From the NCBI GenBank assembly GCA_028713415.1, contig JAQTOI010000002.1, positions 16,689 to 80,688 on the forward strand: DNA of 64,000 nucleotides, written 5' to 3'. A model generated the notes under the pieces. It worked only from the letters and a program-made list of their open reading frames with translations, ran no database searches and was not told the DNA's origin. Below, in pieces: positions 1,013 through 43,816 of the stretch. This DNA comes from Candidatus Omnitrophota bacterium. Its GTDB lineage: Bacteria; Omnitrophota; Gorgyraeia; Duberdicusellales; 4484-171. Every line of letters starts with the position of its first letter. The first letter of the stretch is position 1. Position numbers and translations under genes: made by a program.

Positions 1013-1726
1013 TCAATCTAGATATTCCAAATGACAATCTCCTCTTTTACGAAGCAAATCACGGACTTTCTTTCGAAAAGATTCTTTTTTTATACGCTCA
1101 TCTGCTTTTTCGCACTCCTCCCCAAGTTTTCCGCTATCCCATTTGTACTTTTTCATAAGTGCCGCCATTTTACCGACGATAATTTGTTGAAACTGCTGGC
1201 CATGAGAACCTGCATCTTCCACGGTCATAACCCGTGGCTGCAGAGGGTCAAGCGGTTTTCCCAGCCCAGATTCATTTCTCGCTTGAAACGTAGCGCAATA
1301 AATGTCAGCGGCCTTTTCTACATCAGGATCGATTTTAATATTGGTATTGGTTGCGTATGATTCCTCGGAAGCTGTGACTGTTTTATCTTCTACGGAAATT
1401 GTTTTCTCCTGTTTTTCCTCAATTGTGCTTTCTTCCGGTTTTATAGGATTATTGGCTGACGCAGCAGGGGTTTGATTATTATCTTTTTCAATCGCTTTTA
1501 TAACATTATCAGTTGGTACGATTGGCGCTTGGCCGTCTATACTTTCAATCTCTTCAAAATAATAGGTTATAGGTATACCACTGATATCTACCTTAATAGC
1601 TTTATCTGTTTTCTCGATTATCTTTCCCTCCACGGTGTTTCCGGACTTAAGAATAACGGTCTCTGCAAAAACATGTACAGGAAGAAATAAAAATATCAAC
1701 AATGAAAGTATGATTTCTTTATTCAT
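1013..1726 (-). CDS. Hypothetical secreted protein (N-terminal signal peptide), upstream of cdaA on the same strand
   Basis: 239-aa ORF in the track. An internal Met (MNKEIILSLLIFLFLPVHVFA...) gives a classic signal peptide. The rest is Glu/Lys-rich with no recognisable domain. Confidence 0.45.
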   Translation of the reverse strand: MNKEIILSLLIFLFLPVHVFAETVILKSGNTVEGKIIEKTDKAIKVDISGIPITYYFEEIESIDGQAPIVPTDNVIKAIEKDNNQTPAASANNPIKPEESTIEEKQEKTISVEDKTVTASEESYATNTNIKIDPDVEKAADIYCATFQARNESGLGKPLDPLQPRVMTVEDAGSHGQQFQQIIVGKMAALMKKYKWDSGKLGEECEKADERIKKESFRKKVRDLLRKRGDCHLEYLD

Positions 1727-2088
1727 AAGCAAACCTCCTTAGAGTTTTAATTATATCATTCTTTTCCCGTAGCATTAAGATATTTTCTATGTAGCCAAGT
1801 ATATTATATATCTTAAATAACTTAATAGGCTTGATAATGGTAGTGAAAATCATGAAGAAAATAAAAATAGCGAAATCACTTATTAGGTAAGCAATTTCGC
1901 TATTTCCTTTGAAGCTATTGAGATTACAAAAAATCTTAAAAAAGATGGCGGGGACGAAGGGATTTGTCAACAATCTTCGACGAAGTCGAAGCGATTCCGA
2001 AGGAATCAATTGTTGCCAAATAAGACGTTGGTGTATGAGACAGCTGCGTATGATATTTAGAGCTAACTTGATGTTAAAGAATAAAAAC

Positions 2089-2166
2089 ACGGGGACGAAG
2101 GGATTTGAACCCTCGGTCAGCTGATCGACAATCAGCGGTCTTGAACCGGGCTAGACGACGTCCCCG
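2089..2166 (-). tRNA. tRNA-Asp (anticodon GTC)
   Basis: Reverse complement CGGGGACGUCGUCUAGCCCGGUUCAAGACCGCUGAUUGUCGAUCAGC...GGGUUCAAAUCCCUUCGUCCCCG. It has a 7-bp acceptor stem, a GUUCAAAUCC T-loop, and anticodon loop UUGUCGA. CCA is not encoded. Confidence 0.8.
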
Positions 2167-2383
2167 AAATGGCATATAGCTTACAGCAAATAGCAAGTAG
2201 TGAGTTATTGTAAAGCGATATTGAGAAAAGTCAAAGAATTTTTGTTGATTTTTATAAACCCTGGACTATGCGCCATGAAAAACAATGGGTCCGCCGCGCT
2301 CGTAAAATTTGAAGAAACAAATTTTGCGCTACGGGCGAGACTTCACCATTTTTTTGCAAGCAAAAAAAATGGTGGGCGATACA

Positions 2384-2406
2384 GCCTGCCTGCCGGCAAG
2401 GCAGGG
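2384..2406. repeat. REP-like GC palindrome (CCTGCCTGCCGGCAAGGCAGG), copy 1
   Basis: Near-perfect palindrome. Related copies occur at 10779-10810, 18327-18348, 23946-23967 and 38349-38370. Confidence 0.6.
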
Positions 2407-2661
2407 ACTTGTATAAAATCTTCGACGAAGTCGAAGCGGCCAAAGGCCTCTAATTTTATCCAAGAACTGCCATAGCGCTTTCAAATAACGCGTATTTTGG
2501 CGCATACCGTTGATTGCAAGGAAAACATGGGCGATACAGGACTTGCATGCAATCTTCGACTTCCTGTCGAAGCGCCCGAAGGGCTTTTGCATCCAAGAAC
2601 TGCTACCGCGATTTTAATCAAAGCTTGTTTGCCGCTAGCGCTCTGTTTACAAGGAAAACAA

Positions 2662-2735
2662 TGGGCGATACAGGACTTGAACCTGTGATCCCTTCCATGT
2701 CAAGGAAGTGCTCTAGCCAACTGAGCCAATCGCCC
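2662..2735 (-). tRNA. tRNA-Val (anticodon GAC)
   Basis: Reverse complement GGGCGAUUGGCUCAGUUGGCUAGAGCACUUCCUUGACAUGGAAGGGAUCACAGGUUCAAGUCCUGUAUCGCCCA. It forms a cloverleaf with anticodon loop UUGACAU and a T-loop GGUUCAAGUCC. Confidence 0.85.
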
Positions 2736-3047
2736 TAAATTGCAAATAGCATATGGCAAATAGCTTATAGTTAGATTGCATCCTGCCATAAGCTATATGC
2801 TATAAGCTATTAGCCAGACTGCCGGAGGCGGCTTGTCCGCCGTAGCTTTAGCGTAGGCGGAGACTCGTATCGAATCTGCGACGAAAGTCGCAGCGGTTTC
2901 TCTCTAATTCGATCCGAGATCACCCTTAAGTTTAAAAAAACGAACAATAGAGCAATAGAAAATAGACCGCAATTGAGCTTTAAATCTATTGTTCTATTTT
3001 CGATTGCTCAATTGCTCTGTCTAATTTCGCCACAGGCGAAATTAGAC

Positions 3048-3132
3048 TGCCGGGGGCGGGACTCGAACCCGCACGTCCCTCACGGGACAGCAGATTTTAA
3101 GTCTGCATTGTCTGCCATTCCAACACCCCGGC
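3048..3132 (-). tRNA. tRNA-Leu (anticodon TAA), class II with long variable arm, uninterrupted (no intron)
   Basis: Reverse complement GCCGGGGUGUUGGAAUGGCAGACAAUGCAGACUUAAAAUCUGCUGUCCCGUGAGGGACGUGCGGGUUCGAGUCCCGCCCCCGGCA. It has anticodon loop CUUAAAA, a long variable stem-loop CUGUCCCGUGAGGGACGUG, and a T-loop GGUUCGAGUCC. Confidence 0.85.
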
Positions 3133-3418
3133 TGAAGAATCATAGGGGCTCTGCCCCTTCTGACGTTCGCAAAGTAAGAATTTCATAGAAGCAAAACTTT
3201 GTTCACTGTCAACCCCGCAGTCAAGCCAGGAAGAAAAACTAGTTTCAGCGATTGTTCTAAAGATCAACTAAAGAAAGCTATTTAAAAGAGCAAAAATCTT
3301 TGCTTACGCAAAGAGTCATTACCAACACCCTGGCTTTATTGGTAAATAGCGTATTGCGTATAGCTTATGGTAGAAACTCTTAGCTTTTTGCCATTAGCTA
3401 TGAGCCATATGCCATTAA

Positions 3419-3492
3419 AGGCGGCGAGCGGATTTGAACCGCTGTGTAAAGGTTTTGCAGACCTCCCCCTTAGACCACTTGGGTACGCCGCC
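3419..3492 (-). tRNA. tRNA-Cys (anticodon GCA)
   Basis: Reverse complement GGCGGCGUACCCAAGUGGUCUAAGGGGGAGGUCUGCAAAACCUUUACACAGCGGUUCAAAUCCGCUCGCCGCC. The anticodon loop is CUGCAAA and the T-loop is GGUUCAAAUCC. Confidence 0.8.
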
Positions 3493-3504
3493 AATTCTAA
3501 TATT

Positions 3505-4176
3505 TTAAGAAAGAGCTGATTTATAATTGCTATAAAGTTTATATTTTCTGTCTAGAAAACAAAAGCTCTTATCGCTTGCAGGCCTGAACATAAAATCCAT
3601 TAGCTCCATAGCCTCTTTTGATTTATAAACTAATTGATAACTCCTATGGCTATTGTAAACTTTTTTAACCCGCTGCAAATGGCAGGAGCTTGCAATAACT
3701 TCCGAGAGGCTTTCTAAGAATCGTTTACTTCCAGAAGTAAAAACCGTCCGTGGGATTATTCTATTTTTTGTTTTTTCGCAATAAAATGTTCCATCGCCAT
3801 CAAAATAACCTCGTATGAAATCACCCATAAAATTAGAAGGTATACATTTTGGGAATATCATTGTTAACGATTTTCTTGGTGTTAGCCCTAAATTTATTAA
3901 ATCGCCATAAATATTATGATCGCCTATTCTAAGAAAATAACGGTATTTCCCGTTTGCTGTGCTCGGCGGCAATTTAATAATTTTGTGCTCTGACTCGAAT
4001 GCCCTTCGTATTGTTTGGAGAATTGAGATATCACAACTCGTGATTCTTAAGTATTTACCTCTTAAATAACTGGCATCTTCAAGGCTGCCGTCTGCAAAAA
4101 TATAGCCAAGAATATATGCCATATTTCTGAACCAGGTTTTAAAAAAGTTGCTGTTGACTTTATATTTAAAACCCAT
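3505..4176 (-). CDS. Free-standing double-motif LAGLIDADG homing endonuclease
   Basis: 223-aa ORF with two LAGLIDADG-type motifs, YILGYIFADGSL near the N-terminus and FIRGYFDGDGTF about 100 residues later. It sits directly beside the tRNA cluster and is not embedded in another gene. Confidence 0.75.
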   Translation of the reverse strand: MGFKYKVNSNFFKTWFRNMAYILGYIFADGSLEDASYLRGKYLRITSCDISILQTIRRAFESEHKIIKLPPSTANGKYRYFLRIGDHNIYGDLINLGLTPRKSLTMIFPKCIPSNFMGDFIRGYFDGDGTFYCEKTKNRIIPRTVFTSGSKRFLESLSEVIASSCHLQRVKKVYNSHRSYQLVYKSKEAMELMDFMFRPASDKSFCFLDRKYKLYSNYKSALS

Positions 4177-4252
4177 TCAAGCCTCGCTTCTTAGAAGTCA
4201 AGCTACCGCGCCTAATTTTCAGAAATAGGGCATAAACTTTTGCCGTGGAGCT

Positions 4253-4462
4253 TTACTTTTGCGCGGTATCTTTGACTTGTATTTTGCCCTCAACAATTTC
4301 CCGTAGAGCGTTATCCAAAAGTTTCTCTCCGGGTTTGTCAATCAACGATTTTGCTCCATCAGCAAGGGCAAGCGCGCGTTTGGCTGCCAGAATGGTAATT
4401 TTGAATATTGAACCTTTGCTGGCACCAATTACTCTATCCACTGAAATATACTGCTCATTCAT
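4253..4462 (-). CDS. rpoZ: DNA-directed RNA polymerase subunit omega
   Basis: 69-aa ORF with the ILAAKRALALADG signature of RpoZ. It lies downstream of gmk in the conserved gmk-rpoZ arrangement. Confidence 0.75.
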   Translation of the reverse strand: MNEQYISVDRVIGASKGSIFKITILAAKRALALADGAKSLIDKPGEKLLDNALREIVEGKIQVKDTAQK

Positions 4463-5031
4463 TCGTACCTCCTTGCCAGAAGAATATCCTCCAGATCCAT
4501 TACTGCCGTTTTTATATTCTTGTTAATGACAACATAATCATAATCTTTTTGAGCAAGCATCTCTTTCTTAGCAAGCGCTAGCCGCTCGTCGATTATATTC
4601 TTTTTTTCCGCGCGCGAAAGCAAGCGTTTATAAAGCTCTCCGGAATCCGGAGCAGCTATAAAAATGGTAGTTATTTTACCAACTTTATGGTGTTTTTTCA
4701 AATACATTCCTCCTTTTACGTCTATGCAAAGAATCAGGTTTTTCTGCGCGTGCTTTGCCTGGGTATAGAAATACTTCGGCGTTCCGTAATAATTATCCAA
4801 TACTTTCTGGCTCTCTAAGAAAAATTTTTTCTTCTTGCGCGCGAGGAACTTTTCTTTACTCACAAAGAAATAATCCCTGCCGTTGTTTTCCTTGGGCCTG
4901 CGCTTGCGGGTGGTCCAGGAAATGGCGCGGATGAAATTTTTCTTGAAGATCTTCTTGCGAAATAGTTTATTGAGGAGTGTTGTTTTGCCGCTTCCGCCAG
5001 GACCGGAGAGGATAAAAACTCGAGTGCCCAT
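4459..5031 (-). CDS. gmk: Guanylate kinase
   Basis: 190 aa with a P-loop (ILSGPGGSGKTTL) and SWTTRKRRPKENNGRDYFFVSKEKF, which matches the guanylate kinase TTR...E..G.DY.FV motif. It overlaps rpoZ by 4 nt. Confidence 0.85.
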   Translation of the reverse strand: MGTRVFILSGPGGSGKTTLLNKLFRKKIFKKNFIRAISWTTRKRRPKENNGRDYFFVSKEKFLARKKKKFFLESQKVLDNYYGTPKYFYTQAKHAQKNLILCIDVKGGMYLKKHHKVGKITTIFIAAPDSGELYKRLLSRAEKKNIIDERLALAKKEMLAQKDYDYVVINKNIKTAVMDLEDILLARRYE

Positions 5032-22111: not shown

Positions 22112-22410
22112 TGAGCCCCCTTCTAACTCAATTATTAGCACTAAGCTTATATGTTTTAACCATGGGGTTCTGTTTTTGCGACGGTTTTAAGCTGCATATC
22201 GCAAGAAAACTCGCCTGGTTTCTTGTGTTCCTTTTAATCAGCGCCTATACCTTTCAATTAAAAGGAGAATATGATCTGGCGCTGATCTTGCCTATTCCTT
22301 CTTTGCTGGCAATACTATTATGCAATTACCAAAGAAAGGAAGCGTTGCTTCGGGAAGCTCGGGAAATAATGGCACGCTCAGCGCAACGCCAAAAAATGCT
22401 ACAAAGATGA
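22111..22410 (+). CDS. Hypothetical small membrane protein (99 aa, 3 TM)
   Basis: ORF in the track, hydrophobic, with no known domain. It overlaps its neighbours translationally. Confidence 0.4.
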   Translation: MSPLLTQLLALSLYVLTMGFCFCDGFKLHIARKLAWFLVFLLISAYTFQLKGEYDLALILPIPSLLAILLCNYQRKEALLREAREIMARSAQRQKMLQR

Positions 22411-22526
22411 GGCTGTTATTTCTGGCGTTTCTTACGCTTTTTTTATGCGCTTGCCTGTTCGATAAAAAACCTGTCAGGAAAGGTTATGTTACCTATTACC
22501 CCGCAAAAGCCACAAAGCCGCGATGA
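22407..22526 (+). CDS. Tiny lipoprotein (39 aa) with a GYVTYYPAKAT motif
   Basis: The ATG at 22407 overlaps the previous stop (ATGA). MRLLFLAFLTLFLCAC has a lipobox. It is a paralog of the next gene. Confidence 0.4.
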   Translation: MRLLFLAFLTLFLCACLFDKKPVRKGYVTYYPAKATKPR

Positions 22527-22714
22527 AAATATTGTTTATTGTATTGCTTGCCATCCTCTGCGGCTGCTCTAATCAAAAACCTTATACTGAAGGTTATACC
22601 ACTTATTACCCTGCGAAATCCACAACGCCCACCGTCTATCAAACTCCTTATGACATCATCGAAGAGGGCAATAAAATAACAACCAGAAAAACTACCTACG
22701 AAGCCGCTCAATAA
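22523..22714 (+). CDS. Small lipoprotein (63 aa) with a GYTTYYPAKST motif, tandem paralog of 22407-22526
   Basis: MKILFIVLLAILCGCS has a lipobox. It shares the GY(V/T)TYYPAK(A/S)T motif with the upstream gene. Confidence 0.45.
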   Translation: MKILFIVLLAILCGCSNQKPYTEGYTTYYPAKSTTPTVYQTPYDIIEEGNKITTRKTTYEAAQ

Positions 22715-22725
22715 TTTGTTGTTAT

Positions 22726-23034
22726 TTACCGGCCGCGATAATCACCCCTGTGATTATATTGACCATAAAACCTGGCTCGTTTTTCCCAGTGGCCGCCAAT
22801 CCAAACATACCTTCGGAATCTTCCTTGCCGCTCCCAATGCCCAGGGACCCAGATAAAATCACGATGCTGCCTTGAATTTATGTTGATTTGGAATCCGGGA
22901 AAACGCGCCTGAATAACCGGAACAACTACTGTAGATTTATCCCTGTGCTGGTCTCTTGGCGATGCAAAGGCATTGTTGCTTGTAAAAATAACACCTGAAA
23001 GCAAAAGACAAACTACCAAAATCAGCCGTTTCAT
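22726..23034 (-). CDS. Secreted basic hypothetical protein with duplicated W(V/I)(P/G)GHWE(R/K) motif
   Basis: 102 aa with a signal peptide MKRLILVVCLLLSGVIFTSNNAFA and an internal repeat ...IWVPGHWERQGRFRRYVWIGGHWEKRARF. Confidence 0.45.
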   Translation of the reverse strand: MKRLILVVCLLLSGVIFTSNNAFASPRDQHRDKSTVVVPVIQARFPGFQININSRQHRDFIWVPGHWERQGRFRRYVWIGGHWEKRARFYGQYNHRGDYRGR

Positions 23035-23661
23035 AAACCCTCCTTTTTAATGAGCGCGTGACTTATGGAGCGAACGCATGTGAGCGCTCATAAGCCACAT
23101 GCGCGAATGATCCCGTTTTTGCCTCCATTGATATTTTCGCAATTTCCCCGTGCCGCCCTTAGCGGCAGGAAATTGCGAGAGAAACCTATTGGGCGCAAAA
23201 ATGGGACAAATTCGACCTAGCATTTTTCCTGCGTATTAACTTGTAAAAATGCTGGTCTCATTTGATTAGACGATAGAGGGTCAAAAAAAGTCTACATGCA
23301 ACTCTACTGCCACCAATAGTATTTCAATCTGCGTAATCTTTCTTCAATCTGTGCAATCAAGTTCTTTCCCTTTACTACAAGCTTGGGAAAGAACTAAAAA
23401 TTCTACTTGCGATAATCCCTTGAAAATAATACAATAATTCAAGTTAATGAGGCAGTTAAAATTTAAGCCGAAGGCTTAACTTTTACGTAGCCGAATTAAT
23501 CCCGCCGGAGTCATGGTAAATTTGCGAAGTAAATTTACCGTGTATACAGCGAAGGCGGGATAACACGTTTTCTGGATAGTCTAATATTTGTCCCAACTAA
23601 CGTTGGGACAAATCGACTAGAGGCTTTTGTGCACCTTCAGCTTCAAAAGCCTGAGTCTCAT

Positions 23662-23736
23662 TGCCCGGTAGTGTAATTGGCAACATGACAGACTCTGGAT
23701 CTGTTGTTCATGGTTCGACTCCATGCCGGGCAGCCA
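23662..23736 (+). tRNA. tRNA-Gln (anticodon CTG), CCA encoded
   Basis: UGCCCGGUAGUGUAAUUGGCAACAUGACAGACUCUGGAUCUGUUGUUCAUGGUUCGACUCCAUGCCGGGCAGCCA. It has a U1-A72 pair, discriminator G73, anticodon loop CUCUGGA, and T-loop GGUUCGACUCC. The overlapping track ORF 23661-23972 is spurious. Confidence 0.85.
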
Positions 23737-23744
23737 TAATAAAA

Positions 23745-23776
23745 AATCCTCCTCATTTTTTTGAGGGGGATTTTTT
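23745..23776 (+). terminator. Rho-independent terminator after tRNA-Gln
   Basis: AATCCTCCTCA-TTTTTTT-GAGGGGGATT hairpin followed by TTTTTT. Confidence 0.45.
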
Positions 23777-23945
23777 ATTTATAGTTTTAGGCATGGAGGA
23801 GAACCATCAAAGGGAGCTCAAGGGAAAAGACATTTTTCCCTCGAATTACGTACGCTTCTTTGCAAGGGAAAGAAGTGACAGTCCGCCACACAAGTGGCGA
23901 GGCGTCAGAGAAGAAAACCGTAGGTTGTCTTTTATGAGGAGCGAA

Positions 23946-23967
23946 GCCTGCCTGCCGGCAGGCAGGG
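23946..23967. repeat. REP-like GC palindrome (GCCTGCCTGCCGGCAGGCAGGG), perfect 20-bp palindrome core, copy 4
   Basis: Lies in the non-coding region downstream of tRNA-Gln. Confidence 0.6.
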
Positions 23968-24461
23968 AGTGAGCGACTGGTTCGCCGCAGGGAAATTCCA
24001 TGCGACCGGAGGGCTCATGCCCGAAGGGAGTGCCGAAATTTTACCTGAATGTAATTATATAGATGATTTCGGCCCGGGCAGCCAGGCTTCATCGCGCTTG
24101 CGCGCGTTTCTTCGAATAGAGGTTTTCCTTCAACCGAATGTTATTTTCTCTTACGCCCCGATATTAATCGGGGCGTAACTCTTTAGGGTTTGGGCCCCCA
24201 AACTAAGGTTGTTCATATGAAGCCTCATGAAGGGCGCTGCCTCTTTCTGATGCTTCGCTGTAAGCTTACGCAAAGAAGAAACTTACGCTTCGCTGGTCAA
24301 TCCCCGTAAGAATTTCAGAGAAGAATTTTTATGCTAAATGTTTTGCATTTTAGCTCGATAGCTTTAATTTTTTAAAAGGGTAGTTGGAACAACGGGTTCG
24401 CTGAAGGAAGGGAGTTTTTATTCGTTGATTGTCCCGGCAGGCGAGAACCTGTTAGCCGCGG

Positions 24462-24836
24462 CTATTTCATCTTTAGCAGTAATTTGATATTTTTCAGAAG
24501 TTCGTCCATCTCAAAAGGCTTACGCACATAACAGTTTGCGCCGAGTACCCTGCCTATTACTTTATCGGTATCTGAATTTTTGGCGGTAAGCATAATTATG
24601 GGCAGCGATTCATATTTTTCTTCCTTGCGCAGTTCTCTGCAAATTTGTTCTCCGGGCAAACCCGGAAGTCCTAAATCAAGGAGAATTAGGCTGGCTCCGG
24701 AAGTCCTTGCCTTGTATATACCTTCATAACCATCGCCGGCCGTAATAATTTCGAATCCTTCCATCTCCAGCCTAAGCTTAAGGATTCTTACCATGTCGAC
24801 GTTATCATCTATAATCAAAATTTTTTTCTTTTCCAT
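24462..24836 (-). CDS. Single-domain response regulator (CheY-like receiver)
   Basis: MEKKKILIIDDNVDMVR...LILLDLGLPGL...IIMLTAK is the REC domain. The ATG at 24836 is preceded by a G-rich RBS. The track ORF is extended by 16 codons. Confidence 0.75.
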   Translation of the reverse strand: MEKKKILIIDDNVDMVRILKLRLEMEGFEIITAGDGYEGIYKARTSGASLILLDLGLPGLPGEQICRELRKEEKYESLPIIMLTAKNSDTDKVIGRVLGANCYVRKPFEMDELLKNIKLLLKMK

Positions 24837-25021
24837 GGCAGCCCCCCGTCTTGTTTCTTTGTTTAACTTAGTAAGAGTAGCCAATTATTTTTACTATATA
24901 AATTGCCTTCAGTCAATTGATGATTTCCGCATCCGTAGTTAAAAAAGCTATACCTTAAATTTATTATCGGTGATATTATATATCCGAATATAGATAATTT
25001 TGCGCCGAGCCCAAGGTAGAT

Positions 25022-26122
25022 ATGAAAAAGGTTATCGCCATAACCCTCATCTTAGGATTGATTTTCTGTTTAAATCTACCGCAAAATGCGGATGCAGAAC
25101 TTTCTTTGCGCGTGGCAAGTTACTGGAGAAAATTAAAAGAAAATCTGGTGCAGTGCGAGCTTTGCCCGCGTAAATGCGTTATCGCGCCAAATCAAAGAGG
25201 CTTATGCACCGCGCGCATAAATCGCGGCGGAACTCTCTATACTCTAGCTTACGGAAATCCTGTTTCACTTGCCATTGACCCCATCGAAAAAAAACCTTTC
25301 TTCCATGTTGCTCCAGGAGAACCCATATTTTCCCTGGCGGTGGCAGGCTGCAATATGCGCTGCTTATTCTGTCAGAACTGGCAAATCTCTCAATCAAAGC
25401 CGGATGAAACGGTAAATTACAATATGCCTCCGCAGGCGGTGGTGGATACAGCAATAAAAAATAAATGTAAATTTATCGCTTTTACCTATACGGAGCCGAC
25501 TATTTTTTACGAATATATGCTGGATATCGCAAAAATAGCAAAGGCCAGCGGGCTTAAAAACACGATGCATTCCTGCGGCTACATAAATCCCAAACCTCTG
25601 GAAGAACTGCTTAAATACATGGATGCCGTAAATATTGACCTTAAATCCTTTGACGACAAATTTTATAATAAGATGGCAATGATGGCACAAGTCGGCCCGG
25701 TGCTTGAAACTATTAAAACTATAAAAAAGAACGGCGTATGGCTTGAGCTGACAAATCTGATTATCCCGGGAGAAAACGACTCGCCTGAACAAATACGCCG
25801 GATGTGCCTCTGGATTAAGGAAAATCTGGGTGATGATGTGCCTTTGCATTTTAGCCGGTTTATACCTACGTTTAAGTTGACTAATCTTCCGCCGACACCC
25901 ATTGAGAAACTGGAGGAAGCGCAAAAAATCGCAAAAGAGGCCGGTTTAAAATATGTATATATAGGAAACGTGCCCGGGCACGCCGGAGAGAATACCTATT
26001 GCCCGCATTGCGGAAGAGTTGTAGTTTCGCGCCTGGGCTATGAAATCAGGGAACTGAATATAAAAAACGGTAAGTGCGGCTTTTGCGGAGAAAAAATAGC
26101 CGGCCTCTGGGAAAATGGGTAA
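25022..26122 (+). CDS. Radical SAM enzyme, AmmeMemoRadiSam/PFL-activase-like, with predicted N-terminal signal/anchor
   Basis: 366 aa with CELCPRKC, a radical SAM cluster GCNMRCLFCQNW (Cx3Cx2C), and a C-terminal CPHCG...CGFCG cluster. The N-terminal 25 residues (MKKVIAITLILGLIFCLNLPQNADA) resemble a signal peptide. The alternative start GTG 25112 lacks an RBS. Confidence 0.7.
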   Translation: MKKVIAITLILGLIFCLNLPQNADAELSLRVASYWRKLKENLVQCELCPRKCVIAPNQRGLCTARINRGGTLYTLAYGNPVSLAIDPIEKKPFFHVAPGEPIFSLAVAGCNMRCLFCQNWQISQSKPDETVNYNMPPQAVVDTAIKNKCKFIAFTYTEPTIFYEYMLDIAKIAKASGLKNTMHSCGYINPKPLEELLKYMDAVNIDLKSFDDKFYNKMAMMAQVGPVLETIKTIKKNGVWLELTNLIIPGENDSPEQIRRMCLWIKENLGDDVPLHFSRFIPTFKLTNLPPTPIEKLEEAQKIAKEAGLKYVYIGNVPGHAGENTYCPHCGRVVVSRLGYEIRELNIKNGKCGFCGEKIAGLWENG

Positions 26123-26787
26123 TGTTAATAAATTTTATTGAGATTTTCGCTATAGGCTTTGGATTAGGCCTGGCCGGGCCCTGCCTTTTTTACTGTATCC
26201 CGCCTATTTTCGCCTTTACTCTCGGCTCAATAAAAAATTATGGAAAGTGCCTTATGGATATTTGTGTTTTTTTGTGCGGCCGGACAATTGCCTATATTTT
26301 TCTTGCATTTCTCGCAGGGGCCTCCGGCATGCTTCTGCATAATTTTATTGGCTGGCATTTTGCCTCTTACCTAAAGCCTCTGGCCGGTTTAATAAGCATT
26401 GGCCTTGGTATTTTTATCCTGTTTGAAAAAGAGAATAAGCAAAAGAGGTGCCTGCCGAAATTTGAAACCAATTATACCAAGGGGAGTTTGTTTGGCCTGG
26501 GTTTTATCTTAGGAATAACGCCTTGCGCGCCGCTGGTGGCCTTGCTGTCTGAAATAACCTTAATTTCAAAAGAAGCTTTCTCCGGCGCTCTTTACGGCCT
26601 TGCTTTTGGTTTAGGTACCTTTATTCCGGCGTTTCTCATCACCGCAGCTCTAGCGGGTATTTTTAAAGAGGCGCCGCGGGTGTTATTAAAATCAGTCAAT
26701 ACAAGGCGCTACCTGAAAATAACCTCATCGATTCTGCTTATAGCATTAGGTTTATTATTTATCGCAGGATCATTTACTGGTCGCTGA
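26122..26787 (+). CDS. DsbD_2/CcdA-like transmembrane protein with conserved Cys pair (putative thiol-disulfide or electron transfer)
   Basis: About 221 aa with 6 TM helices. Cys lies within TM1 (GLAGPCLFYC) and TM4 (GITPCAPLVA). The ATG at 26122 overlaps the radical SAM stop (TAATG). The family call is tentative. Confidence 0.5.
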   Translation: MLINFIEIFAIGFGLGLAGPCLFYCIPPIFAFTLGSIKNYGKCLMDICVFLCGRTIAYIFLAFLAGASGMLLHNFIGWHFASYLKPLAGLISIGLGIFILFEKENKQKRCLPKFETNYTKGSLFGLGFILGITPCAPLVALLSEITLISKEAFSGALYGLAFGLGTFIPAFLITAALAGIFKEAPRVLLKSVNTRRYLKITSSILLIALGLLFIAGSFTGR

Positions 26788-26915
26788 ACAACTATCTTGA
26801 CACCGCAGAGGCGCAAAAAGGAAAAAAAGAATGCACTTAGTTATTTTTAAATTTTTTATCTCACTTTTGCGTTTTTGCGCACTTTTGGCGGTTTAGCGGT
26901 GTAAAAATTTAAACA

Positions 26916-29174
26916 ATGAAAAAAACTCTTTTCTTTTCAGTAATCTGCGCCGGGCTTACCGCTATGGCAAGCCAGATTATCTTAGTGCGGGAATTTCTGG
27001 TGCTTTCGGGGGGAGATGAATTATCCATAGGAATAATCCTCGCTTGCTGGCTGATAAATACGGCCTTGGGAAGCATGGCGCTGGGTAATTTTATTCCTAA
27101 AATAAAATCTAAAATTTATTGGCTTTGGTTTTCTTTTCTCTTTCTGGCGGTATACCTGCCGCTGGCAATTTTCCTCTGCCGGGGAGTTAGAGTAGCCCTC
27201 CGGATAAACCCCGGAGAAATTTTGCAGTATCAGGTGCTTGGATTCTGCGCTTTTTTTATCCTGCTTCCTAGCTGTGCGCTTCTTGGCTTTATATTTTCTC
27301 TTGCCTGCAGATTATATGAAGATAATTCGCCTTTAGGCTCAGTAAACATAGCGAAGGTTTACGCTCTTGAGGCTATAGGCTCAATGCTGGGGGGATTATT
27401 GACAAGCTCGGTTTTAATAGGTATGTTCAACAGCTTCGAGGCAATTGCTTTATTGAGCTTGTTAAATATCCTGCTTGGTTTTTTTATCATTTTAGGCTTG
27501 CCTAAAAAAAGGCTGGTAGCTGTAGGCATAAATTCCATTTTTTTTATTATCTGTATATTTTTATTCCTGACAGGTGCCTGGAAGAATTTGGAGACTTATT
27601 CTCTGAAAAGGCAGTGGCCCGGATTTGAAGTCTTAGAAAGCAAGAATACAATTTACGCAAACCTCCTTAGCCTTAAAAGAGGAAATCAGGTCTCTTTTTT
27701 TGAAAACGGGACAAGGCTCTATACAGTTTTTGACAAACAGTTAAGCGAGGAGGCAGTGCACTTCTGCCTTCTGGAACACAAAAACCCCCGCAATATACTT
27801 CTTATCGGCGCAGGCTTTGCGGGTTTATTGGATGAAATATTAAAATATCCTGTAACCTGCGTTGATTACGTAGAGCTTGACCCAGCGCTCGTTACAATGG
27901 CAAAAAAACATCTTCCGCCTCTTTATACTTCCAGCCTCCAAAATACGCTGGTGCATGTGATAAATACTGATGCGCGATTTTTCCTAAAAACTACCCCAAA
28001 AAAATACGATTGCATAATTCTGCATCTGGGCGCGCCTTACAGCGCCCAGATAAACAGGTTCTATACTTATGATTTTTTCAGGCGCCTTAAGCTGAATTTA
28101 AAAAATGAAGGCATATTATCTTTTTACCTTAATGCTTCAGAAAACTATATCAACGCGGAAGGAGCGGATTTCCTGCGCTCTGTTTATAGCACCTTGAAAA
28201 CTGTGTTTAAAGAAGTTAAGGTTATTCCCGGAGAGACGGTATATTTCCTGGCTTCTGATACAAAGGGAGAATTAACTTTAGATTTTAATATACTCATGCA
28301 AAGGGCAAAGGATGCGGGTTTAAATTTGCAATATGTGCGGGAATATTACTTAATCAGCAGATTGAACCCTGACAAAATTAATTATTTAAATTCTATTCTG
28401 GAAAGAAATGTCCCGGTAAGAATTAACCGCGATTTTAAACCTCGCTTGTATTATTACGGAATTATCTCATGGGGCTCCCGTTTTAGAGAATCAATATTTA
28501 CTAAAGTTTTGAAACAGGTAAGTGAAAAAAAGATTTACCTAATTTTCGCTCTTTTTTTATTTGGCATAGCTTTTTTTGGAGCAAGGCAGCCAAGAAACTC
28601 AATTTCAGCCGCATTAATAACTGCCGGGTTTTGCCAGAGCGTATTGCAGATAATCCTGATTTATGCCTTTCAAGTTATTTACGGCTACCTCTTCTATAAA
28701 ATCGGAACTCTATTTGCCTCTTTTATGCTGGGCCTGGGCGTGAGCGCCTGGCGTTTTACTAAAGCAAAAGCGCCTGAACAAAAAACATATTCGCGCCTAT
28801 TAGGCATCCAGCTGGCAGCCGCCGCGCTTTTTTTGATTTTACCGCTGATTTTATCGCGACTGGCTAGTTTGAACCTTGCTTCCATATCCTGGCTTGGCGC
28901 AAACTTATTTTTCCCAGCACTTTCCTTGCTTTCCGGACTCCTGGGCGGCGCCATATTTGCTCAAGCCAACCACATATATCTTTTCCAAGCAGAAAGCGCC
29001 GGGATAGAAAAAACAGCCGCGTTTGCTTATGGCTTAGATTTATTGGGTGCGTGCTTCGGGGCCTTAAGCGTTGTTTTTTTAATCCCGATTATGGGCATTT
29101 TCTCGACTTGCTTTTTACTGGCTAGCCTGAATCTAGTTGTCTTTATTGTGCTGCGTTATGGCAGGAACCGCTAA
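26916..29174 (+). CDS. Polytopic membrane protein with embedded spermidine/spermine-synthase-like (aminopropyltransferase-fold) domain
   Basis: 752 aa with about 7 TM helices, then a soluble domain with RNILLIGAGFAGLLDEI...VELDPALV...DCIILHL (a Rossmann or SpdS-like GxGxG...D motif), then about 6 more TM helices. Confidence 0.65.
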   Translation: MKKTLFFSVICAGLTAMASQIILVREFLVLSGGDELSIGIILACWLINTALGSMALGNFIPKIKSKIYWLWFSFLFLAVYLPLAIFLCRGVRVALRINPGEILQYQVLGFCAFFILLPSCALLGFIFSLACRLYEDNSPLGSVNIAKVYALEAIGSMLGGLLTSSVLIGMFNSFEAIALLSLLNILLGFFIILGLPKKRLVAVGINSIFFIICIFLFLTGAWKNLETYSLKRQWPGFEVLESKNTIYANLLSLKRGNQVSFFENGTRLYTVFDKQLSEEAVHFCLLEHKNPRNILLIGAGFAGLLDEILKYPVTCVDYVELDPALVTMAKKHLPPLYTSSLQNTLVHVINTDARFFLKTTPKKYDCIILHLGAPYSAQINRFYTYDFFRRLKLNLKNEGILSFYLNASENYINAEGADFLRSVYSTLKTVFKEVKVIPGETVYFLASDTKGELTLDFNILMQRAKDAGLNLQYVREYYLISRLNPDKINYLNSILERNVPVRINRDFKPRLYYYGIISWGSRFRESIFTKVLKQVSEKKIYLIFALFLFGIAFFGARQPRNSISAALITAGFCQSVLQIILIYAFQVIYGYLFYKIGTLFASFMLGLGVSAWRFTKAKAPEQKTYSRLLGIQLAAAALFLILPLILSRLASLNLASISWLGANLFFPALSLLSGLLGGAIFAQANHIYLFQAESAGIEKTAAFAYGLDLLGACFGALSVVFLIPIMGIFSTCFLLASLNLVVFIVLRYGRNR

Positions 29175-29245
29175 ATTCGGTTTCAAATAGTTTTAAGCTT
29201 GACACTCACAGCTTGAAATAGTATGCTTAGCATTAAGAACAGTTT

Positions 29246-30136: not shown

Positions 30137-31345
30137 ATGCATAAAATTAAAAGGAAAAGCTTCAGTTTACTTGAATTAATCATTGTTTTAGTGGTGGTAG
30201 GGATCTTGGCTGCAACGGCACTTCTTATATATAACGGCACCATAGAATATGCTAAAAGAAATGAAGCAATTCATAATGCGGCTCTTATCAGAGAAGCGGA
30301 ATTTGCTCAAAAAACCCAAAACGGAACCTTCATAGCAGCTGGTAATGCCGAAGAAGTTAACAATCTTTTATCCCTCACTATTGTTCCCAAAGATTATGAA
30401 TATAAAGTGGTTGGAGTAAGCGATGACGATTTTACTATTTTAGCCACAAAAATTGATACTGATGAAATAGTCCTGGCTTTAAATAAAGATGGGGTGCTTC
30501 AGGTAACAGACTCTGGCCAGGGCGGCGACACAGGCGGCGGCACTGGCGGTTCAGGCTCCGATAGTGGTGAGGAGGGCGGTGGTGGTGGCTCTGGCGGAGG
30601 GGGCGGCGGAGGCTCTGGCGGAGGCTCTGGCGGTGGTGACAGCGGTGGCGGCACTGGCGGTGGCGGTGGCGACACTGGCGGTGGGGGCGGCGGCTCTGGT
30701 GGCGGCGGAGGCTCTGGCGGCGGCGATGACGGAGGCGGAGATGACGGAGGCTCTGGCGGTGGGGGCGGCGGTTTTGGTTCTGTTTCTCACTCTGGAGGCG
30801 GTTGGTCCAATATCCTCGCTAGAGGCGGAGAGGCTGGGACAATAGATGATGGCTTACAAAGCGCTTTAAGCCTTCTTGAAAGTTCTACTTCTGCACTATA
30901 TGTTCCAGAATTAATAGAAGATAACCACATTAGCGTGCTGTATCAAACTGCTCCGTCTTATATCGGGGCGTGGTGGATGAGCAGTACAAATACAATATAC
31001 GTTAATACAGACCAGCAGGGCAACCCTACTGCGGCAATCGCAGCCTTAATCGCTCACGAGGCAACGCATGCTGATTATGATTATCACCAGGAATATTGGA
31101 TTAATACCACCATAGAGAGGCATCCGGAGCTAACAAGAGAGCAGCTTAGCGTACCTGATAATTCCGTTAACCAGGAATATGATTGTTTTTGTAATCAGAT
31201 GGCAGCGTGGCAAGAATTGAAACAAACCGCAACAGATGTCAATAATGATGCTTGGTTAGGCATATATAATCAAGGTGAAGATTATATGAAGTCGACCATA
31301 AAAACCCAGTATGCTTCTATCGGAATAATATTACCCAATTATTAG
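30137..31345 (+). CDS. Type IV pilin or pseudopilin-like protein fused to a C-terminal HExxH (DUF4157-like) putative metallopeptidase domain through a Gly/Ser/Asp-rich linker
   Basis: 402 aa. The N-terminus KRKS/FSLLELIIVLVVVGILAA is a prepilin cleavage/methylation motif with E at +5 and Ser instead of Gly at -1. Residues about 125-225 are more than 70% Gly/Ser/Asp. The C-terminal domain is ...NTIYVNTDQQGNPTAAIAALIAHEATHADYDYHQEYW...EYDCFCNQMAAWQEL. Confidence 0.6.
   Translation: MHKIKRKSFSLLELIIVLVVVGILAATALLIYNGTIEYAKRNEAIHNAALIREAEFAQKTQNGTFIAAGNAEEVNNLLSLTIVPKDYEYKVVGVSDDDFTILATKIDTDEIVLALNKDGVLQVTDSGQGGDTGGGTGGSGSDSGEEGGGGGSGGGGGGGSGGGSGGGDSGGGTGGGGGDTGGGGGGSGGGGGSGGGDDGGGDDGGSGGGGGGFGSVSHSGGGWSNILARGGEAGTIDDGLQSALSLLESSTSALYVPELIEDNHISVLYQTAPSYIGAWWMSSTNTIYVNTDQQGNPTAAIAALIAHEATHADYDYHQEYWINTTIERHPELTREQLSVPDNSVNQEYDCFCNQMAAWQELKQTATDVNNDAWLGIYNQGEDYMKSTIKTQYASIGIILPNY
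30525..30790 (+). repeat. Low-complexity coding repeat (GGC/GGT/TCT units encoding a poly-Gly/Ser linker)
   Basis: Reiterated ggcggtggc, tctggcggaggc and gatgacggaggc units. The antisense alanine-rich track ORFs here are artefacts of this repeat. Confidence 0.7.
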
Positions 31346-32153: not shown

Positions 32154-32663
32154 TTGAATACTATTGCTCAAGCAGAAATAGGCAATTTTCAAGGCATAGA
32201 GATAGTCGGCAGCCACGAATTCGTATTGCATGTAGGAAAAGCATTGGGGCTTCTTAACAAAAATGCCTTTTTTGCTTTTAATACCGTTAAAGAGTACGTG
32301 GGCAGGATACAGGAGTCGCCTCGTAGCGGAATGAACGTATACATTAATCCGCCGACATTCGAATTAAGCGCCAAAAGCGCATTTTACTCTCTTACCTGGT
32401 GCGCGGGGATCATTGCTCATGACGCCTACCATTCACAGCAATATTTTTCTTATCAGAAAATTCATGGAGATCCGGTACCTGCTGGTGTCTGGACAGGAAA
32501 AGATGCTGAGATAGAATGCCTCAATTTCCAAAAAGAAGCGATGCGCGCTATAGGCGCTCCGGATAAAGAGATAGACTATGTGGCTTCCGTAGAGCCAACA
32601 TATTATGATGTCAATAAAGATGGCCGATACGATCAAGAAGATTACCTCTTGCGGGACTGGTAA
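32154..32663 (+). CDS. Secreted protein with an HxxxH (HExxH-like, DUF4157-like) domain, paralog of the pilin-fused C-terminal domain
   Basis: ...NVYINPPTFELSAKSAFYSLTWCAGIIAHDAYHSQQYF...EIECLNFQKEAMRAIG aligns by eye with the pilin-fusion region TIYVNTD...ALIAHEATHADYDYHQEYW...EYDCFCNQMAAWQEL. The true start is probably upstream (the in-frame KIKVLISLFFLLVSLNTIAQA signal peptide has no ATG), so the 5' end is uncertain. Confidence 0.5.
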   Translation: MNTIAQAEIGNFQGIEIVGSHEFVLHVGKALGLLNKNAFFAFNTVKEYVGRIQESPRSGMNVYINPPTFELSAKSAFYSLTWCAGIIAHDAYHSQQYFSYQKIHGDPVPAGVWTGKDAEIECLNFQKEAMRAIGAPDKEIDYVASVEPTYYDVNKDGRYDQEDYLLRDW

Positions 32664-42052: not shown

Positions 42053-43816
42053 ATGAACTCCTTTTTACCTACTTCAAAAGCCGACCTAAAAAAGACAAAT
42101 TGGGAGAGCCTGGACATCATCCTTATCAGCGGTGATGCCTACGTGGACCACCCCTCTTACGGCACCTCCGTAATAGGCAGGGTTTTGGAAAATTCCGGCT
42201 ATAAAGTAGGGATTATCGCCCAACCCAATTGGCGCAAGCCGGATGATTTTGTCAGATTAGGTAAACCCCGCTTATTTTTTGGAATATCCGCCGGAAACCT
42301 TGATTCTATGGTGGCAAATTACACAACCAACATGCACCGCCGCCGGTCCGACGATTATTCACCAGGCACAAAACCGAATTTACGGCCAGACAGGGCGGTA
42401 ATTGTTTACGCAAATATGGTGCGCAAGGCCTATAGCGATACTTGCATTGTAATAGGGGGGATAGAAGCATCGTTACGCAGATTTGCGCATTATGACTTCT
42501 GGGAAAATCGCGTGCGCGGCTCAATTCTCCTGGATTCAAGAGCAAACATTTTAGTTTACGGCATGGCTGAAAAACAGATAGTAGAAATAGCGCGCCGCAG
42601 GAGAAAAAATTTGCCTCTGACAAATATTCCAGGCACAACCATTGCGCAAAAAGATACAAGCGGGCTTGGAGAATATTTGGAGCTTCCCTCTTGCGAAGAA
42701 ACAAAAGCAGACAGAGATAAATTCAATGAAGCATTCAGGATATTTTACCGCAACCAGGACCCTTTTAGAGGGAAAACGCTTATTCAGCGCCACAGCGGAC
42801 GCTTAATAGTGCAATTTCCCCCTGCCCCGCCACTGGCGCAAGAAGAGCTTGGTAAAATATTTGAGCTGCCCTATATGCGCGCGCCTCATCCGGATTATAA
42901 CACTCAGGGCGGCGTATCCGGTTTTGAAACAGTGCGTTTTTCTATTATTTCAAATAGAGGCTGCTGCGGAGAATGCAACTTCTGCTCTCTTTATGCGCAT
43001 CAGGGAAGAATTGTTACCTCGCGCAGCAAAGAATCTATACTTCGCGAAGTCCTGCTTTTAACGCGGCAGAAAAATTTTAGAGGAACAATCACCGACGTAG
43101 GAGGCCCTACCGCTAACCTATACTACAGCCGTTGCGGCCGCTGGAACAGGGAAGGCGCCTGTGCTCATAAACAATGCTTAATGCCAAAACAATGCCCGCA
43201 TTTAAAATTAGGGTATAGAGAAAGCCTGGAACTTTATAAAGCGCTGCTGGCCCTGCCAAAAGTAAAACATGTTTTTATAGAAAGCGGGTTTCGTTACGAC
43301 TTGCTTACCGATGAAACAGCGGAAAACTACCTGAAAAATATATGCGCAAGCCACATAAGCGGCCAGATGAAGGTAGCCCCGGAACATAATGTTGAAAAAG
43401 TATTAAAAGTTATGAATAAACCAGCCCTGGCTTCTTATGAAAAGTTTGTGGAAAAATACCGCGCAGCGTCCGCAGAGGTTAAAAAAGAACTTTATCTGGT
43501 AAATTATTTCATCTCAGGACACCCAGGCACAACCCTGCAAGATGCTTTGGATTTAGCGCTATATCTAATACGCAAAAAAATCAGGCCGCAACAGATACAA
43601 GATTTTATACCCCTGCCCCTGACCCTAAGCGGCTGCATTTTTTATACAGGAAAAGACCCTCTGACTTCGCAAATTATTTATGTGCCCAGGGCACAAAAGG
43701 AAAGAAAAATGCAGCGGGCGCTTATACAGTATTTTAATCCGAAAAATAAAAGGTTGGTCTTAGAAGCCTTAAAGATTTTAAAGAAGGTTCACTTAAGGGG
43801 CCAGTTTCATGTTTAA
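42053..43816 (+). CDS. ygiQ: YgiQ-family (UPF0313) radical SAM protein
   Basis: 587 aa. The N-terminus ...ILISGDAYVDHPSYGTSVIGRVLENSGYKVGIIAQPNW is the hallmark of YgiQ, and a CxxxCxxC motif (CGECNFC) is present. Confidence 0.8.
   Translation: MNSFLPTSKADLKKTNWESLDIILISGDAYVDHPSYGTSVIGRVLENSGYKVGIIAQPNWRKPDDFVRLGKPRLFFGISAGNLDSMVANYTTNMHRRRSDDYSPGTKPNLRPDRAVIVYANMVRKAYSDTCIVIGGIEASLRRFAHYDFWENRVRGSILLDSRANILVYGMAEKQIVEIARRRRKNLPLTNIPGTTIAQKDTSGLGEYLELPSCEETKADRDKFNEAFRIFYRNQDPFRGKTLIQRHSGRLIVQFPPAPPLAQEELGKIFELPYMRAPHPDYNTQGGVSGFETVRFSIISNRGCCGECNFCSLYAHQGRIVTSRSKESILREVLLLTRQKNFRGTITDVGGPTANLYYSRCGRWNREGACAHKQCLMPKQCPHLKLGYRESLELYKALLALPKVKHVFIESGFRYDLLTDETAENYLKNICASHISGQMKVAPEHNVEKVLKVMNKPALASYEKFVEKYRAASAEVKKELYLVNYFISGHPGTTLQDALDLALYLIRKKIRPQQIQDFIPLPLTLSGCIFYTGKDPLTSQIIYVPRAQKERKMQRALIQYFNPKNKRLVLEALKILKKVHLRGQFHV

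Follow-up and report, generated by a model that had tools for sequence, protein, structure and literature searches.

The locus described here lies in a 64 kb stretch of a Candidatus Omnitrophota metagenome-assembled genome (the window; all coordinates are those of the whole stretch) and comprises three genes on the same strand that encode a radical S-adenosylmethionine (SAM) enzyme, a DsbD_2/CcdA-like membrane protein, and a large membrane protein carrying a spermidine synthase (SpdS)-like domain. A preliminary description of this DNA had placed them within 25022-29174; the open reading frames are confirmed there, at 25022-26122, 26122-26787, and 26916-29174. Products of 366, 221, and 752 aa are also obtained from an independent gene call on a 6.9 kb Logan contig from the same organism, and the window proteins are represented in NCBI by MDD5194165.1 and MDD5194167.1, from a source contig of 85 kb. 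The stop codon of the radical SAM gene overlaps the start codon of the DsbD_2 gene as TAATG at 26120-26124, as had been noted, and a 128-nt spacer precedes the start of the 752-aa gene. On balance, and with reasonable though far from complete confidence, the three genes are regarded as one operon for a branch of the AmmeMemoRadiSam system that is linked to the membrane and lies outside the cytoplasm. Family membership, conserved export signals, linkage in several phyla, gene fusions, the loss of SpeE residues, and charge-bias topology were all computed directly. The features of the module are as follows.

25022..26122, plus strand: AmmeMemoRadiSam-type radical SAM enzyme, 366 aa (TIGR04337, 398.7 bits; PF04055, 92.1 bits)
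25022..25096, plus strand: predicted Sec-type signal peptide, residues 1-25 (MKKVIAITLILGLIFCLNLPQNADA), outside the TIGR04337 alignment
25154..25207, plus strand: N-terminal four-cysteine cluster C45/C48/C52/C62, with a CxxCPxxC motif that is present in homologs
25349..25372, plus strand: CX3CX2C motif C110/C114/C117, inside the PF04055 match and predicted to bind the radical SAM [4Fe-4S] cluster
26000..26086, plus strand: C-terminal CxxC...CxxC pairs C327/C330/C352/C355
26122..26787, plus strand: DsbD_2/CcdA-like six-transmembrane (TM) protein, 221 aa (PF13386, 66.5 bits; cutoff 24.9), its start overlapping the radical SAM stop
26916..29174, plus strand: 14-TM protein resembling the major facilitator superfamily (MFS), 752 aa, with an SpdS-fold domain between TM7 and TM8 (PF01564, NF037959)
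27627..28517, plus strand: SpdS-like soluble domain, residues 238-534, predicted periplasmic (Foldseek, SpeE alignment, charge bias)
29164..29194, plus strand: terminator-like hairpin that overlaps the third gene's stop codon (consensus match only)

The AmmeMemoRadiSam system is defined by a radical SAM enzyme (TIGR04337), a Memo-like protein B (TIGR04336), and an AMMECR1-like protein A (TIGR04335), and the AmmeMemoRadiSam-like identity proposed for the window enzyme is borne out by a score far above the TIGR04337 cutoff of 220. The alignment pairs residues 33-364 with model positions 2-334 of 349 and leaves the N-terminal ∼32 residues outside the model. The CX3CX2C motif is present as AGCNMRCLFCQNW, and the mature domain contains 14 cysteines. 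The nearest solved structure is that of PflA (3C8F, E 2.3e-7), which is also the next-best NCBIfam match, and by these similarities the enzyme appears to be a distant relative of this activase. Like PflA and other glycyl-radical activases, it has a radical SAM core bearing CX3CX2C, but it differs from them in its score (66.7 bits against an equivalog cutoff of 231.75), in its additional N- and C-terminal four-cysteine clusters and export signal, and in having no glycyl-radical enzyme partner at this locus. PflA itself is cytoplasmic and is reduced by flavodoxin.

In line with the original description of a single ATG start with a ribosome-binding site, the ATG at 25022 is the sole ATG 5′ of the radical SAM domain, and AAGG lies 5 nt ahead of it. 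The NCBI model of the enzyme, MDD5194165.1, is 338 aa long and starts at an internal TTG, at Leu29. Nearly all database homologs are 360-384 aa long with 99% query coverage, and an in-frame hydrophobic extension is kept in every full-length copy (80 loci, 52-74% identity).

The comparison set consists of 80 retrieved related loci (loci and proteins are designated below by L and P numbers, respectively), from which 76 homologs could be scored for their N terminus. Localization calls are heuristics built on charge bias, hydrophobicity, and motif matching: a Sec-type signal was called from a positive n-region, an h-region of ∼7-15 or more uncharged residues, and small residues at -3/-1, and a Tat signal from S/T-R-R-x-F-L-K before a moderately hydrophobic h-region. 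By these heuristics the N terminus of the window enzyme, MKK / VIAITLILGLIFCL / NLPQNADA, is a Sec signal. The signal-peptide-like N terminus reported for the window protein proved general among its orthologs, as a positive n-region followed by a hydrophobic stretch was found in 76 of 76 scorable N termini, with no start at an internal codon. In 75 of the 76, the 8 residues that precede the hydrophobic stretch have a net positive charge; the uncharged stretch has a median length of 17 residues and is followed by a small-x-small motif in 68, and flank charge is +2.55 on the N-terminal side versus +0.62 on the C-terminal side, the former being higher in 58 homologs. The N terminus is therefore predicted to have signal-peptide anatomy in an N-in orientation, which would place the catalytic domain outside the cytoplasm.

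The Tat motif is not found in the window protein, which carries KK and whose h-region is strongly hydrophobic (3.09). It is found in orthologs from Syntrophorhabdus (L051, L060, L080), which begin MI(N/S/D)RRQF(I/V)K, from an Acidobacteriota metagenome-assembled genome (L084; N terminus ...INRRRFLQCALVSG, motif INRRRFLQ), and from a Chloroflexota one (L085; N terminus ...LSRRRFLQGAAAFAG, motif SRRRFLQG). On rescanning, L060, L084, and L085 all pass the TIGR04337 cutoff, with alignments to the model that begin at residue 38, 61, or 65. The h-region hydrophobicity of the Tat-type proteins is 2.0-2.2, versus 2.4-4.0 in the Sec-type proteins of Omnitrophota, as expected for Tat relative to Sec signals. 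A HMMER search of 1.84 billion cluster representatives returned 1642 relatives at E <= 1e-30, and the 150 nearest (50%-identity clusters) were classified: 32 carry a canonical Tat signal, 6 have a Sec/TM-type N terminus, 13 have a long N-terminal fusion (11 of them starting with a membrane or signal segment), about 94 have no hydrophobic extension, and 5 are N-terminally truncated or other. Export or membrane signals are thus present in ∼1/3 of these 150 representatives. The Tat pathway exports folded, cofactor-loaded proteins, and the simplest reading of a Tat-tagged ortholog with Fe-S clusters is therefore a holoenzyme in the periplasm; the Tat signals in other phyla are the strongest argument for export. 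One further homolog, P0303 (784 aa), has a large apparent intein/homing-endonuclease-like insertion, judged by eye, right after the first cysteine of CX3CX2C.

The second protein of the operon had been described as a two-cysteine DsbD_2-like protein. The family assignment and the cysteines in TM1 and TM4 stand, and the count is corrected to three family-invariant cysteines, which lie in the motifs GPC21-x3-C25-x-P in TM1 and P-C135-x-P-L in TM4 and are conserved in 62/62 (C21), 62/62 (C25), and 60/62 (C135) homologs. A fourth cysteine, in a cytoplasmic loop, is shared by 40 of the 62. Loops 1, 3, and 5 hold 12 lysine plus arginine (K+R) residues versus 2 elsewhere, and from this bias the protein is predicted to be N-out/C-out, as are CcdA and DsbDβ. 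It resembles the CcdA/DsbD transporters in its DsbD_2 Pfam match, its six TM helices, its Pro-Cys in TM1 and TM4, and this N-out/C-out bias, but it differs in the third invariant cysteine, which makes a CxxxC in TM1, and in the translational coupling of its gene to the radical SAM gene, to which it is fused in other organisms. No match to the solved CcdA structures was found by sequence, and neither a thioredoxin-like gene in the operon nor a periplasmic thioredoxin-like partner in the window was found for it; a lipoprotein thioredoxin occurs near the KSB1 locus L083. Of 81 loci, 62 contain a DsbD_2 gene; it lies nearby in 57 of 73 loci with a Sec-type enzyme versus 0 of 6 with a Tat-type enzyme, a contrast that fits a role for DsbD_2 in keeping reduced, or in maturing, an enzyme that crosses the membrane in unfolded form.

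The 752-aa product matches PF01564 with 75.3 bits at residues 277-403, in agreement with the SpdS-like domain first noticed, and NF037959, the ‘fused MFS/spermidine synthase’ family after which NCBI names the protein, with 46.9 bits (cutoff 40). The domain is sandwiched between TM helices as stated, with 14 helices (7+7) in place of the estimated ∼13: an AlphaFold2 model built with 53 homologs (predicted local distance difference test, pLDDT, 92; predicted template modeling score, pTM, 0.90) has 7 TM helices, a soluble region at 238-534, and 7 further TM helices. The modeled soluble domain has a complete SpeE fold, with Foldseek TM-scores of 0.70-0.78 to 1UIR, 3O4F, 1INL, and 6BQ2. Equivalog cutoffs are missed throughout (TIGR00417, 72 vs. 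249.55; PRK00811, 92.9 vs. 260; PRK03612, 139.9 vs. 472).

SpeE has an acid in its GGG(D/E)G motif, and the two Asp residues of its D-x-x-D-P motif bind and deprotonate the amine substrate. In a HMMER alignment to Thermus thermophilus SpeE (1UIR/3ANX), GGGEG corresponds to GAGFAG (F301) and DLTDP to HLGAP (H370, A373) in the window protein. Family-wide, position 301 is occupied by V/A/I/F and position 370 by N/H, while 33 of 53 homologs have D at position 373. No variation is seen at E320 (ribose), at D352 (adenine), or at the family-specific R354 and R381. The loss of the catalytic acids alongside this invariance suggests that the domain probably still binds an adenosyl cofactor and that standard aminopropyl transfer is probably impossible for it in this organism; loss of the acid that selects decarboxylated SAM over SAM would be compatible with SAM binding. 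The domain is thus like SpeE/NF037959 proteins in its full fold, glycine-rich loop, conserved E320 and D352, and NF037959 score, and unlike SpeE in these substitutions and in its predicted periplasmic position between two 7-TM bundles.

Charge bias gives this protein an N-in, C-in topology with the SpdS-like domain on the periplasmic side. Over 53 homologs, mean K+R is 18.3 on the side of the N terminus, even loops, and C terminus versus 4.5 on the other side, to which the flanks of the soluble domain add 5.5, and the bias points the same way in each of the 53. The TM parts of the window protein give no match to Pfam MFS_1 at E <= 1, and two homologs give sub-threshold MFS_1 matches (28 bits vs. 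a cutoff of 33.4), one per six-helix half, which agree with N-in/C-in. With 7+7 rather than 6+6 helices and MFS_1 below cutoff, the TM domain falls outside the MFS as defined and is termed ‘MFS-like’ only; the arrangement is consistent with an MFS-like core that gained, in its central cytoplasmic loop, a TM7/TM8 hairpin presenting the domain to the periplasm. The conserved intramembrane acids E35, E152, and D708 would be appropriate for a cationic substrate.

The three genes are co-conserved: within the limits of their contigs, all 37 of the closest loci (61-74% identity) have the order radical SAM-DsbD_2-SpdS. An SpdS-like gene occurs in 44 of 81 loci, and the genes are found linked in no fewer than six gene orders and six phyla, including the following.

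Memo/AMMECR1-radical SAM-DsbD_2-SpdS: L026, L028, L030
SpdS-radical SAM-Memo/AMMECR1: Syntrophorhabdus L060, L080 (AMMECR1 only in L080)
Radical SAM-Memo/AMMECR1-(SpdS reversed)-DsbD_2: Margulisiibacteriota L061, Omnitrophota L065
Radical SAM-Memo/AMMECR1-(SpdS reversed): L066, L075

Since gene order varies, the linkage is not merely frozen synteny. In the reverse approach, four contexts of distant SpdS-like homologs were inspected and the system was present in three: a Memo-AMMECR1 lipoprotein and a radical SAM gene lie near the KSB1 homolog, convergent Tat-type radical SAM and Memo-AMMECR1 genes accompany the Acidobacteriota homolog, and in Chloroflexota the stop codon of a Tat-type radical SAM gene overlaps the SpdS-like start. 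No system genes were found in the neighborhood of the Altiarchaeales homolog.

The canonical Memo and AMMECR1 partners had been called absent, with other genes in their place. This is correct for the window and does not extend to the related loci, where a fused Memo-AMMECR1 gene adjoins the radical SAM gene in 38 of 80. The gene directly after radical SAM in 35 of 43 more distant loci is a ∼500-aa Memo-AMMECR1 fusion, or its visible part at contig ends and in L080, and the fusion directly precedes radical SAM in 3 of 37 close loci (L026, L028, L030); in the window’s own subclade it is not adjacent. The fusion scores 207 bits with PF01875 and 191 bits with PF01871, and its parts pass TIGR04336 and TIGR04335. 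A hydrophobic, signal-like segment stands right before the conserved Memo start motif in all fusions adjacent to radical SAM, and the KSB1 copy has a lipoprotein box; as an internal control, stand-alone Memo paralogs in the same loci begin at the Memo start motif with no hydrophobic N terminus. As a signal-bearing Memo-AMMECR1 adjoins the enzyme in so many loci, the module is regarded as an exported branch of the AmmeMemoRadiSam system and not its replacement. The module shares with that system the adjacency of proteins A and B, above their cutoffs, in related loci, and differs from it in the export signals on the enzyme and on the fused A/B (the family model has no N-terminal extension), in the absence of A and B from the window, and in the added DsbD_2 and MFS-like/SpdS-like membrane proteins. 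Triple fusions of radical SAM, AMMECR1, and Memo come in two flavors, one with an N-terminal signal/TM segment (P0251, P0269) and one of ∼900-1100 aa without it (P0283, P0287, P0295, and others).

Fusion architectures confirmed by Pfam among the cluster representatives join the enzyme to membrane and redox domains.

DsbD_2::radical SAM: P0245, P0247
DsbD_2+FMN_bind+2×Fer4_5+radical SAM: P0256
FMN_bind+2×Fer4_5+radical SAM, NosR/NapH-like: P0248, P0250
TM+FMN_bind+radical SAM: P0258, P0266
Signal peptide+β-propeller or CBM_11-like domain+radical SAM: P0242, P0244

Both DsbD_2 fusions have many K/R residues in loops 1, 3, and 5 but not in loops 2 and 4, and in each the radical SAM domain follows TM6; these loop charges put the end of TM6 in the periplasm, so the fused radical SAM domain is predicted to be periplasmic as well. 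FMN_bind domains of NosR, RnfG, and NqrC are extracytoplasmic, and the FMN_bind and Fer4_5 domains fused to or beside radical SAM in this clade resemble NosR/NapH-type donors, a likeness that suggests a common scheme for delivering electrons to a catalyst in the periplasm; the window differs in having no such module, with DsbD_2 in the corresponding position. A close homolog of the third protein is an SpdS-like::Fer4_5 fusion (P0125) that lies inside a radical SAM-DsbD_2-SpdS locus (L086). Upstream of this fusion (1324-4596) are genes for Fur, a desulfoferrodoxin N-domain protein, rubrerythrin, a Nitro_FeMo-Co protein, a methyltransferase, a ZIP metal transporter, and a DsrE-like protein, a metal/oxidative-stress neighborhood. 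Near radical SAM at other loci are Tat-signal DUF362 proteins (L084, L037) and a NapH-like polyferredoxin (L037), and nitroreductase-family flavoproteins adjoin it in L001 (10991-11680), L052 (8080-8769), L069 (8096-8755), L072 (5443-6120), and L048 (5679-6425). The L001 nitroreductase, the only one whose sequence was inspected, has an N-terminal signal-like segment, and L052, L069, and L072 are Elusimicrobia/Endomicrobia loci without DsbD_2, Memo, or AMMECR1. The recurring theme of these neighbors is a membrane-spanning or extracytoplasmic redox partner. A recurring ATP-binding cassette (ABC) ATPase neighbor was dropped, its cluster consisting of unrelated ABC proteins in unrelated positions.

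The earlier view of the locus as an uncharacterized membrane-associated module holds in its core, on the conservation of the N terminus and of the three-gene order, and a mechanism may be sketched in which the radical SAM domain would act on the periplasmic side. The three-cysteine, CcdA-like DsbD_2 protein would relay reducing equivalents to it from the cytoplasm, either keeping the cysteines of the mature domain and the clusters reduced or feeding the cluster via a partner, a role that FMN_bind, NosR/NapH-like, Tat-DUF362, or exported nitroreductase proteins may take elsewhere. The 14-TM protein would be an MFS-like exporter whose TM7/TM8 hairpin shows a domain binding SAM or decarboxylated SAM at the periplasmic face, where it might deliver or hold SAM, or a cationic substrate, for the enzyme. 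Because of the PflA-like ancestry, the enzyme is proposed to abstract a hydrogen atom, possibly together with Memo-AMMECR1, and by the same analogy its substrate is likely a protein or another macromolecule of the envelope or extracytoplasmic space. In full, this proposal of periplasmic radical SAM chemistry, with export by Sec in Omnitrophota and by Tat elsewhere, SAM provided by the MFS-like/SpdS exporter, and electrons provided by CcdA-like, NosR/NapH-like, or FMN_bind conduits to an envelope-modifying machine, is tentative and may well prove wrong.

Several points weigh against an extracytoplasmic system. The signal of the window enzyme, with KK and its high hydrophobicity, is of the Sec type, and the enzyme would cross the membrane unfolded and cluster-free, while we know of no route for Fe-S cluster assembly in the periplasm nor of a SAM supply or pool there. 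A thiol-disulfide relay is too weakly reducing for direct reduction of a radical SAM [4Fe-4S] cluster. The association of DsbD_2 with Sec-type but not Tat-type enzymes is confounded by phylogeny, the only case within Omnitrophota being L066. A motif scan and tblastn of the whole 64 kb window recovered no Memo or AMMECR1 coding sequence, and the nearest Memo-AMMECR1 accession, MDD5197033, belongs to the same submission batch as MDD5194165 and MDD5194167 but stands 2868 numbers apart and perhaps derives from another genome. The role proposed for the SpdS-like domain is drawn solely from its fold, its retained adenosine-binding residues, and its co-occurrence; fusions in metagenomic data can be gene-calling artifacts, though these occur in seven independent cluster representatives; and every localization call is heuristic.

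These difficulties would be sidestepped, as regards SAM, reductant, and Fe-S assembly outside the cell, if the N terminus were an uncleaved N-out/C-in anchor that holds a normal cytoplasmic radical SAM enzyme to both of the membrane proteins, with the SpdS-like domain likewise in the cytoplasm. The lack of a twin arginine in the window signal, the presence of some K/R on the C-flank, and the 18 of 76 homologs in which N-flank charge does not exceed that of the C-flank are in keeping with such an anchor. The predominantly positive n-regions and the N-flank excess in 58 of 76 homologs nevertheless oppose it, as do the short h-regions followed by small-x-small motifs, the canonical Tat signals on orthologs, the fusion of radical SAM to FMN_bind domains and after the periplasmic end of DsbD_2, and the outward-pointing charge bias of every SpdS-like homolog, and we consider this arrangement unlikely.

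An exported module might alternatively serve to modify pseudopilins or secreted proteins encoded nearby, and processing of the pilin or secreted proteins downstream had in fact been suggested; the suggestion finds weak support in pilin-like genes in the window and in 1 of 37 close loci, with no link outside Omnitrophota. A prepilin-like gene with an N_methyl motif (30137-31345) and a TPR gene follow the operon, a pilin-like gene follows the SpdS gene in L002, and a secretin-GspE-GspF-pseudopilin operon lies directly upstream of radical SAM-Memo/AMMECR1-DsbD_2 in ∼19-21 more distant Omnitrophota loci. The downstream pilin gene is nevertheless confined to that single close locus, the adjacency to a type II secretion system (T2SS) is confined to one Omnitrophota lineage with a frozen order that includes RsmE and a MiaB-like gene, and the module has no pilin genes beside it in Syntrophorhabdus, Margulisiibacteriota, KSB1, Acidobacteriota, or Chloroflexota; a role in the maturation of pilins or secreted proteins is judged quite improbable. 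The T2SS/type IV pilus-like block itself (L042, 236-6271; also L045, L046, L049, L050, L059, L062, L063, L066, L067, L071, and L077) has RsmE and the MiaB-like radical SAM gene downstream, and its gene order is constant throughout. The prepilin-like protein at 30137-31345 combines an N-terminal methylation motif, a Gly/Ser/Asp-rich low-complexity region of ∼90 residues, and a C-terminal domain with a HEATH (HExxH-like) motif; an HExxH-like domain shared with the open reading frame at 32154-32663 was considered and found unsupported (E 0.16).

It is also conceivable that the genes have independent functions, an ordinary membrane polyamine aminopropyltransferase and a DsbD_2 protein for general cytochrome-c or thiol maintenance joined only by conserved order, and the PF01564 and PRK03612-type similarity and the complete SpeE fold would accord with this. 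The wide misses of the SpeE equivalog cutoffs (92.9 vs. 260 and 72 vs. 249.55), the replaced catalytic acids, the recurrence of the linkage across gene orders and phyla, and the fusion of DsbD_2 to radical SAM domains in independent clusters make it very unlikely. That the start was miscalled, the internal TTG of the PGAP annotation (338 aa; P0001, MDD5194165.1) being the true start and the ‘signal peptide’ an untranslated leader, is hardly credible, since the upstream frame is open and hydrophobic in every full-length homolog, and most database homologs (360-384 aa, covering 99% of the 366-aa query), the independent 366-aa gene call, and the ATG at 25022 with its upstream AAGG and no other ATG before the domain contradict it as well.

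The module is set among housekeeping genes within ∼15 kb on either side, and among these genes there are no Tat components, thioredoxin, or signal-bearing ferredoxin. Its immediate upstream flank is made up of two features.

24885..25021, plus strand: intergenic region 5′ of the operon; contains promoter-like hexamers, and AAGG precedes the ATG by 5 nt
24462..24884, minus strand: divergent single-domain response regulator (PF00072, 84.5 bits), a loosely associated neighbor

The promoter-like sites lie at 24939-24967 and 24970-24998 and are consensus matches only, and the hairpin at 29164-29194 likely marks the end of the operon. Response-regulator homologs occur near the module in six related loci (L019, L022, L023, L031, L032, L053). 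The 1.4 kb stretch at 23035-24461 is without a convincing open reading frame and contains only a tRNA-Gln(CTG) at 23662-23736; an Rfam scan found nothing more there and nothing beyond tRNAs in the window. Further upstream, two adjacent small predicted lipoproteins (22320-22714) share the motif G-Y-(V/T)-T-Y-Y-P-A-K-(A/S)-T and, with a WXXGXW-repeat protein on the minus strand (22726-23034), form a small cluster of envelope proteins. A second, unrelated radical SAM protein of 587 aa lies 13 kb downstream (42053-43816), with Radical_SAM_N, Radical_SAM, and DUF3362 domains and without a signal peptide.

Each part of the module belongs to a named family, and two parts are already labeled by NCBI; what is new is the exported branch and the accessory membrane genes, which had not been linked before. 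The AmmeMemoRadiSam system is mentioned just in passing in the searchable literature, where no paper on a periplasmic or Tat-exported radical SAM enzyme or on the fused MFS/SpdS family and no experimental work on that subfamily was found. Burroughs et al. reportedly described Memo-AMMECR1-radical SAM gene contexts in 2019, and a prior partial description is possible. The NCBI gene model trims the conserved signal peptide (window 25022-25108), an instance of automated annotation hiding an export signal. To our knowledge, every characterized radical SAM enzyme is cytoplasmic, where SAM, low-potential reductants, and Fe-S assembly exist. The findings suggest that oxygen-sensitive radical chemistry, so far intracellular only, may also take place outside the cytoplasmic membrane, and a large signal-bearing clade in several phyla, together with its electron conduits and a periplasm-facing SAM-fold domain, would imply an unrecognized supply of SAM and reductant to the envelope of anaerobes. 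For AmmeMemoRadiSam, Memo, and AMMECR1, of which human homologs exist, the cell envelope thereby becomes a testable setting with named accessory genes.

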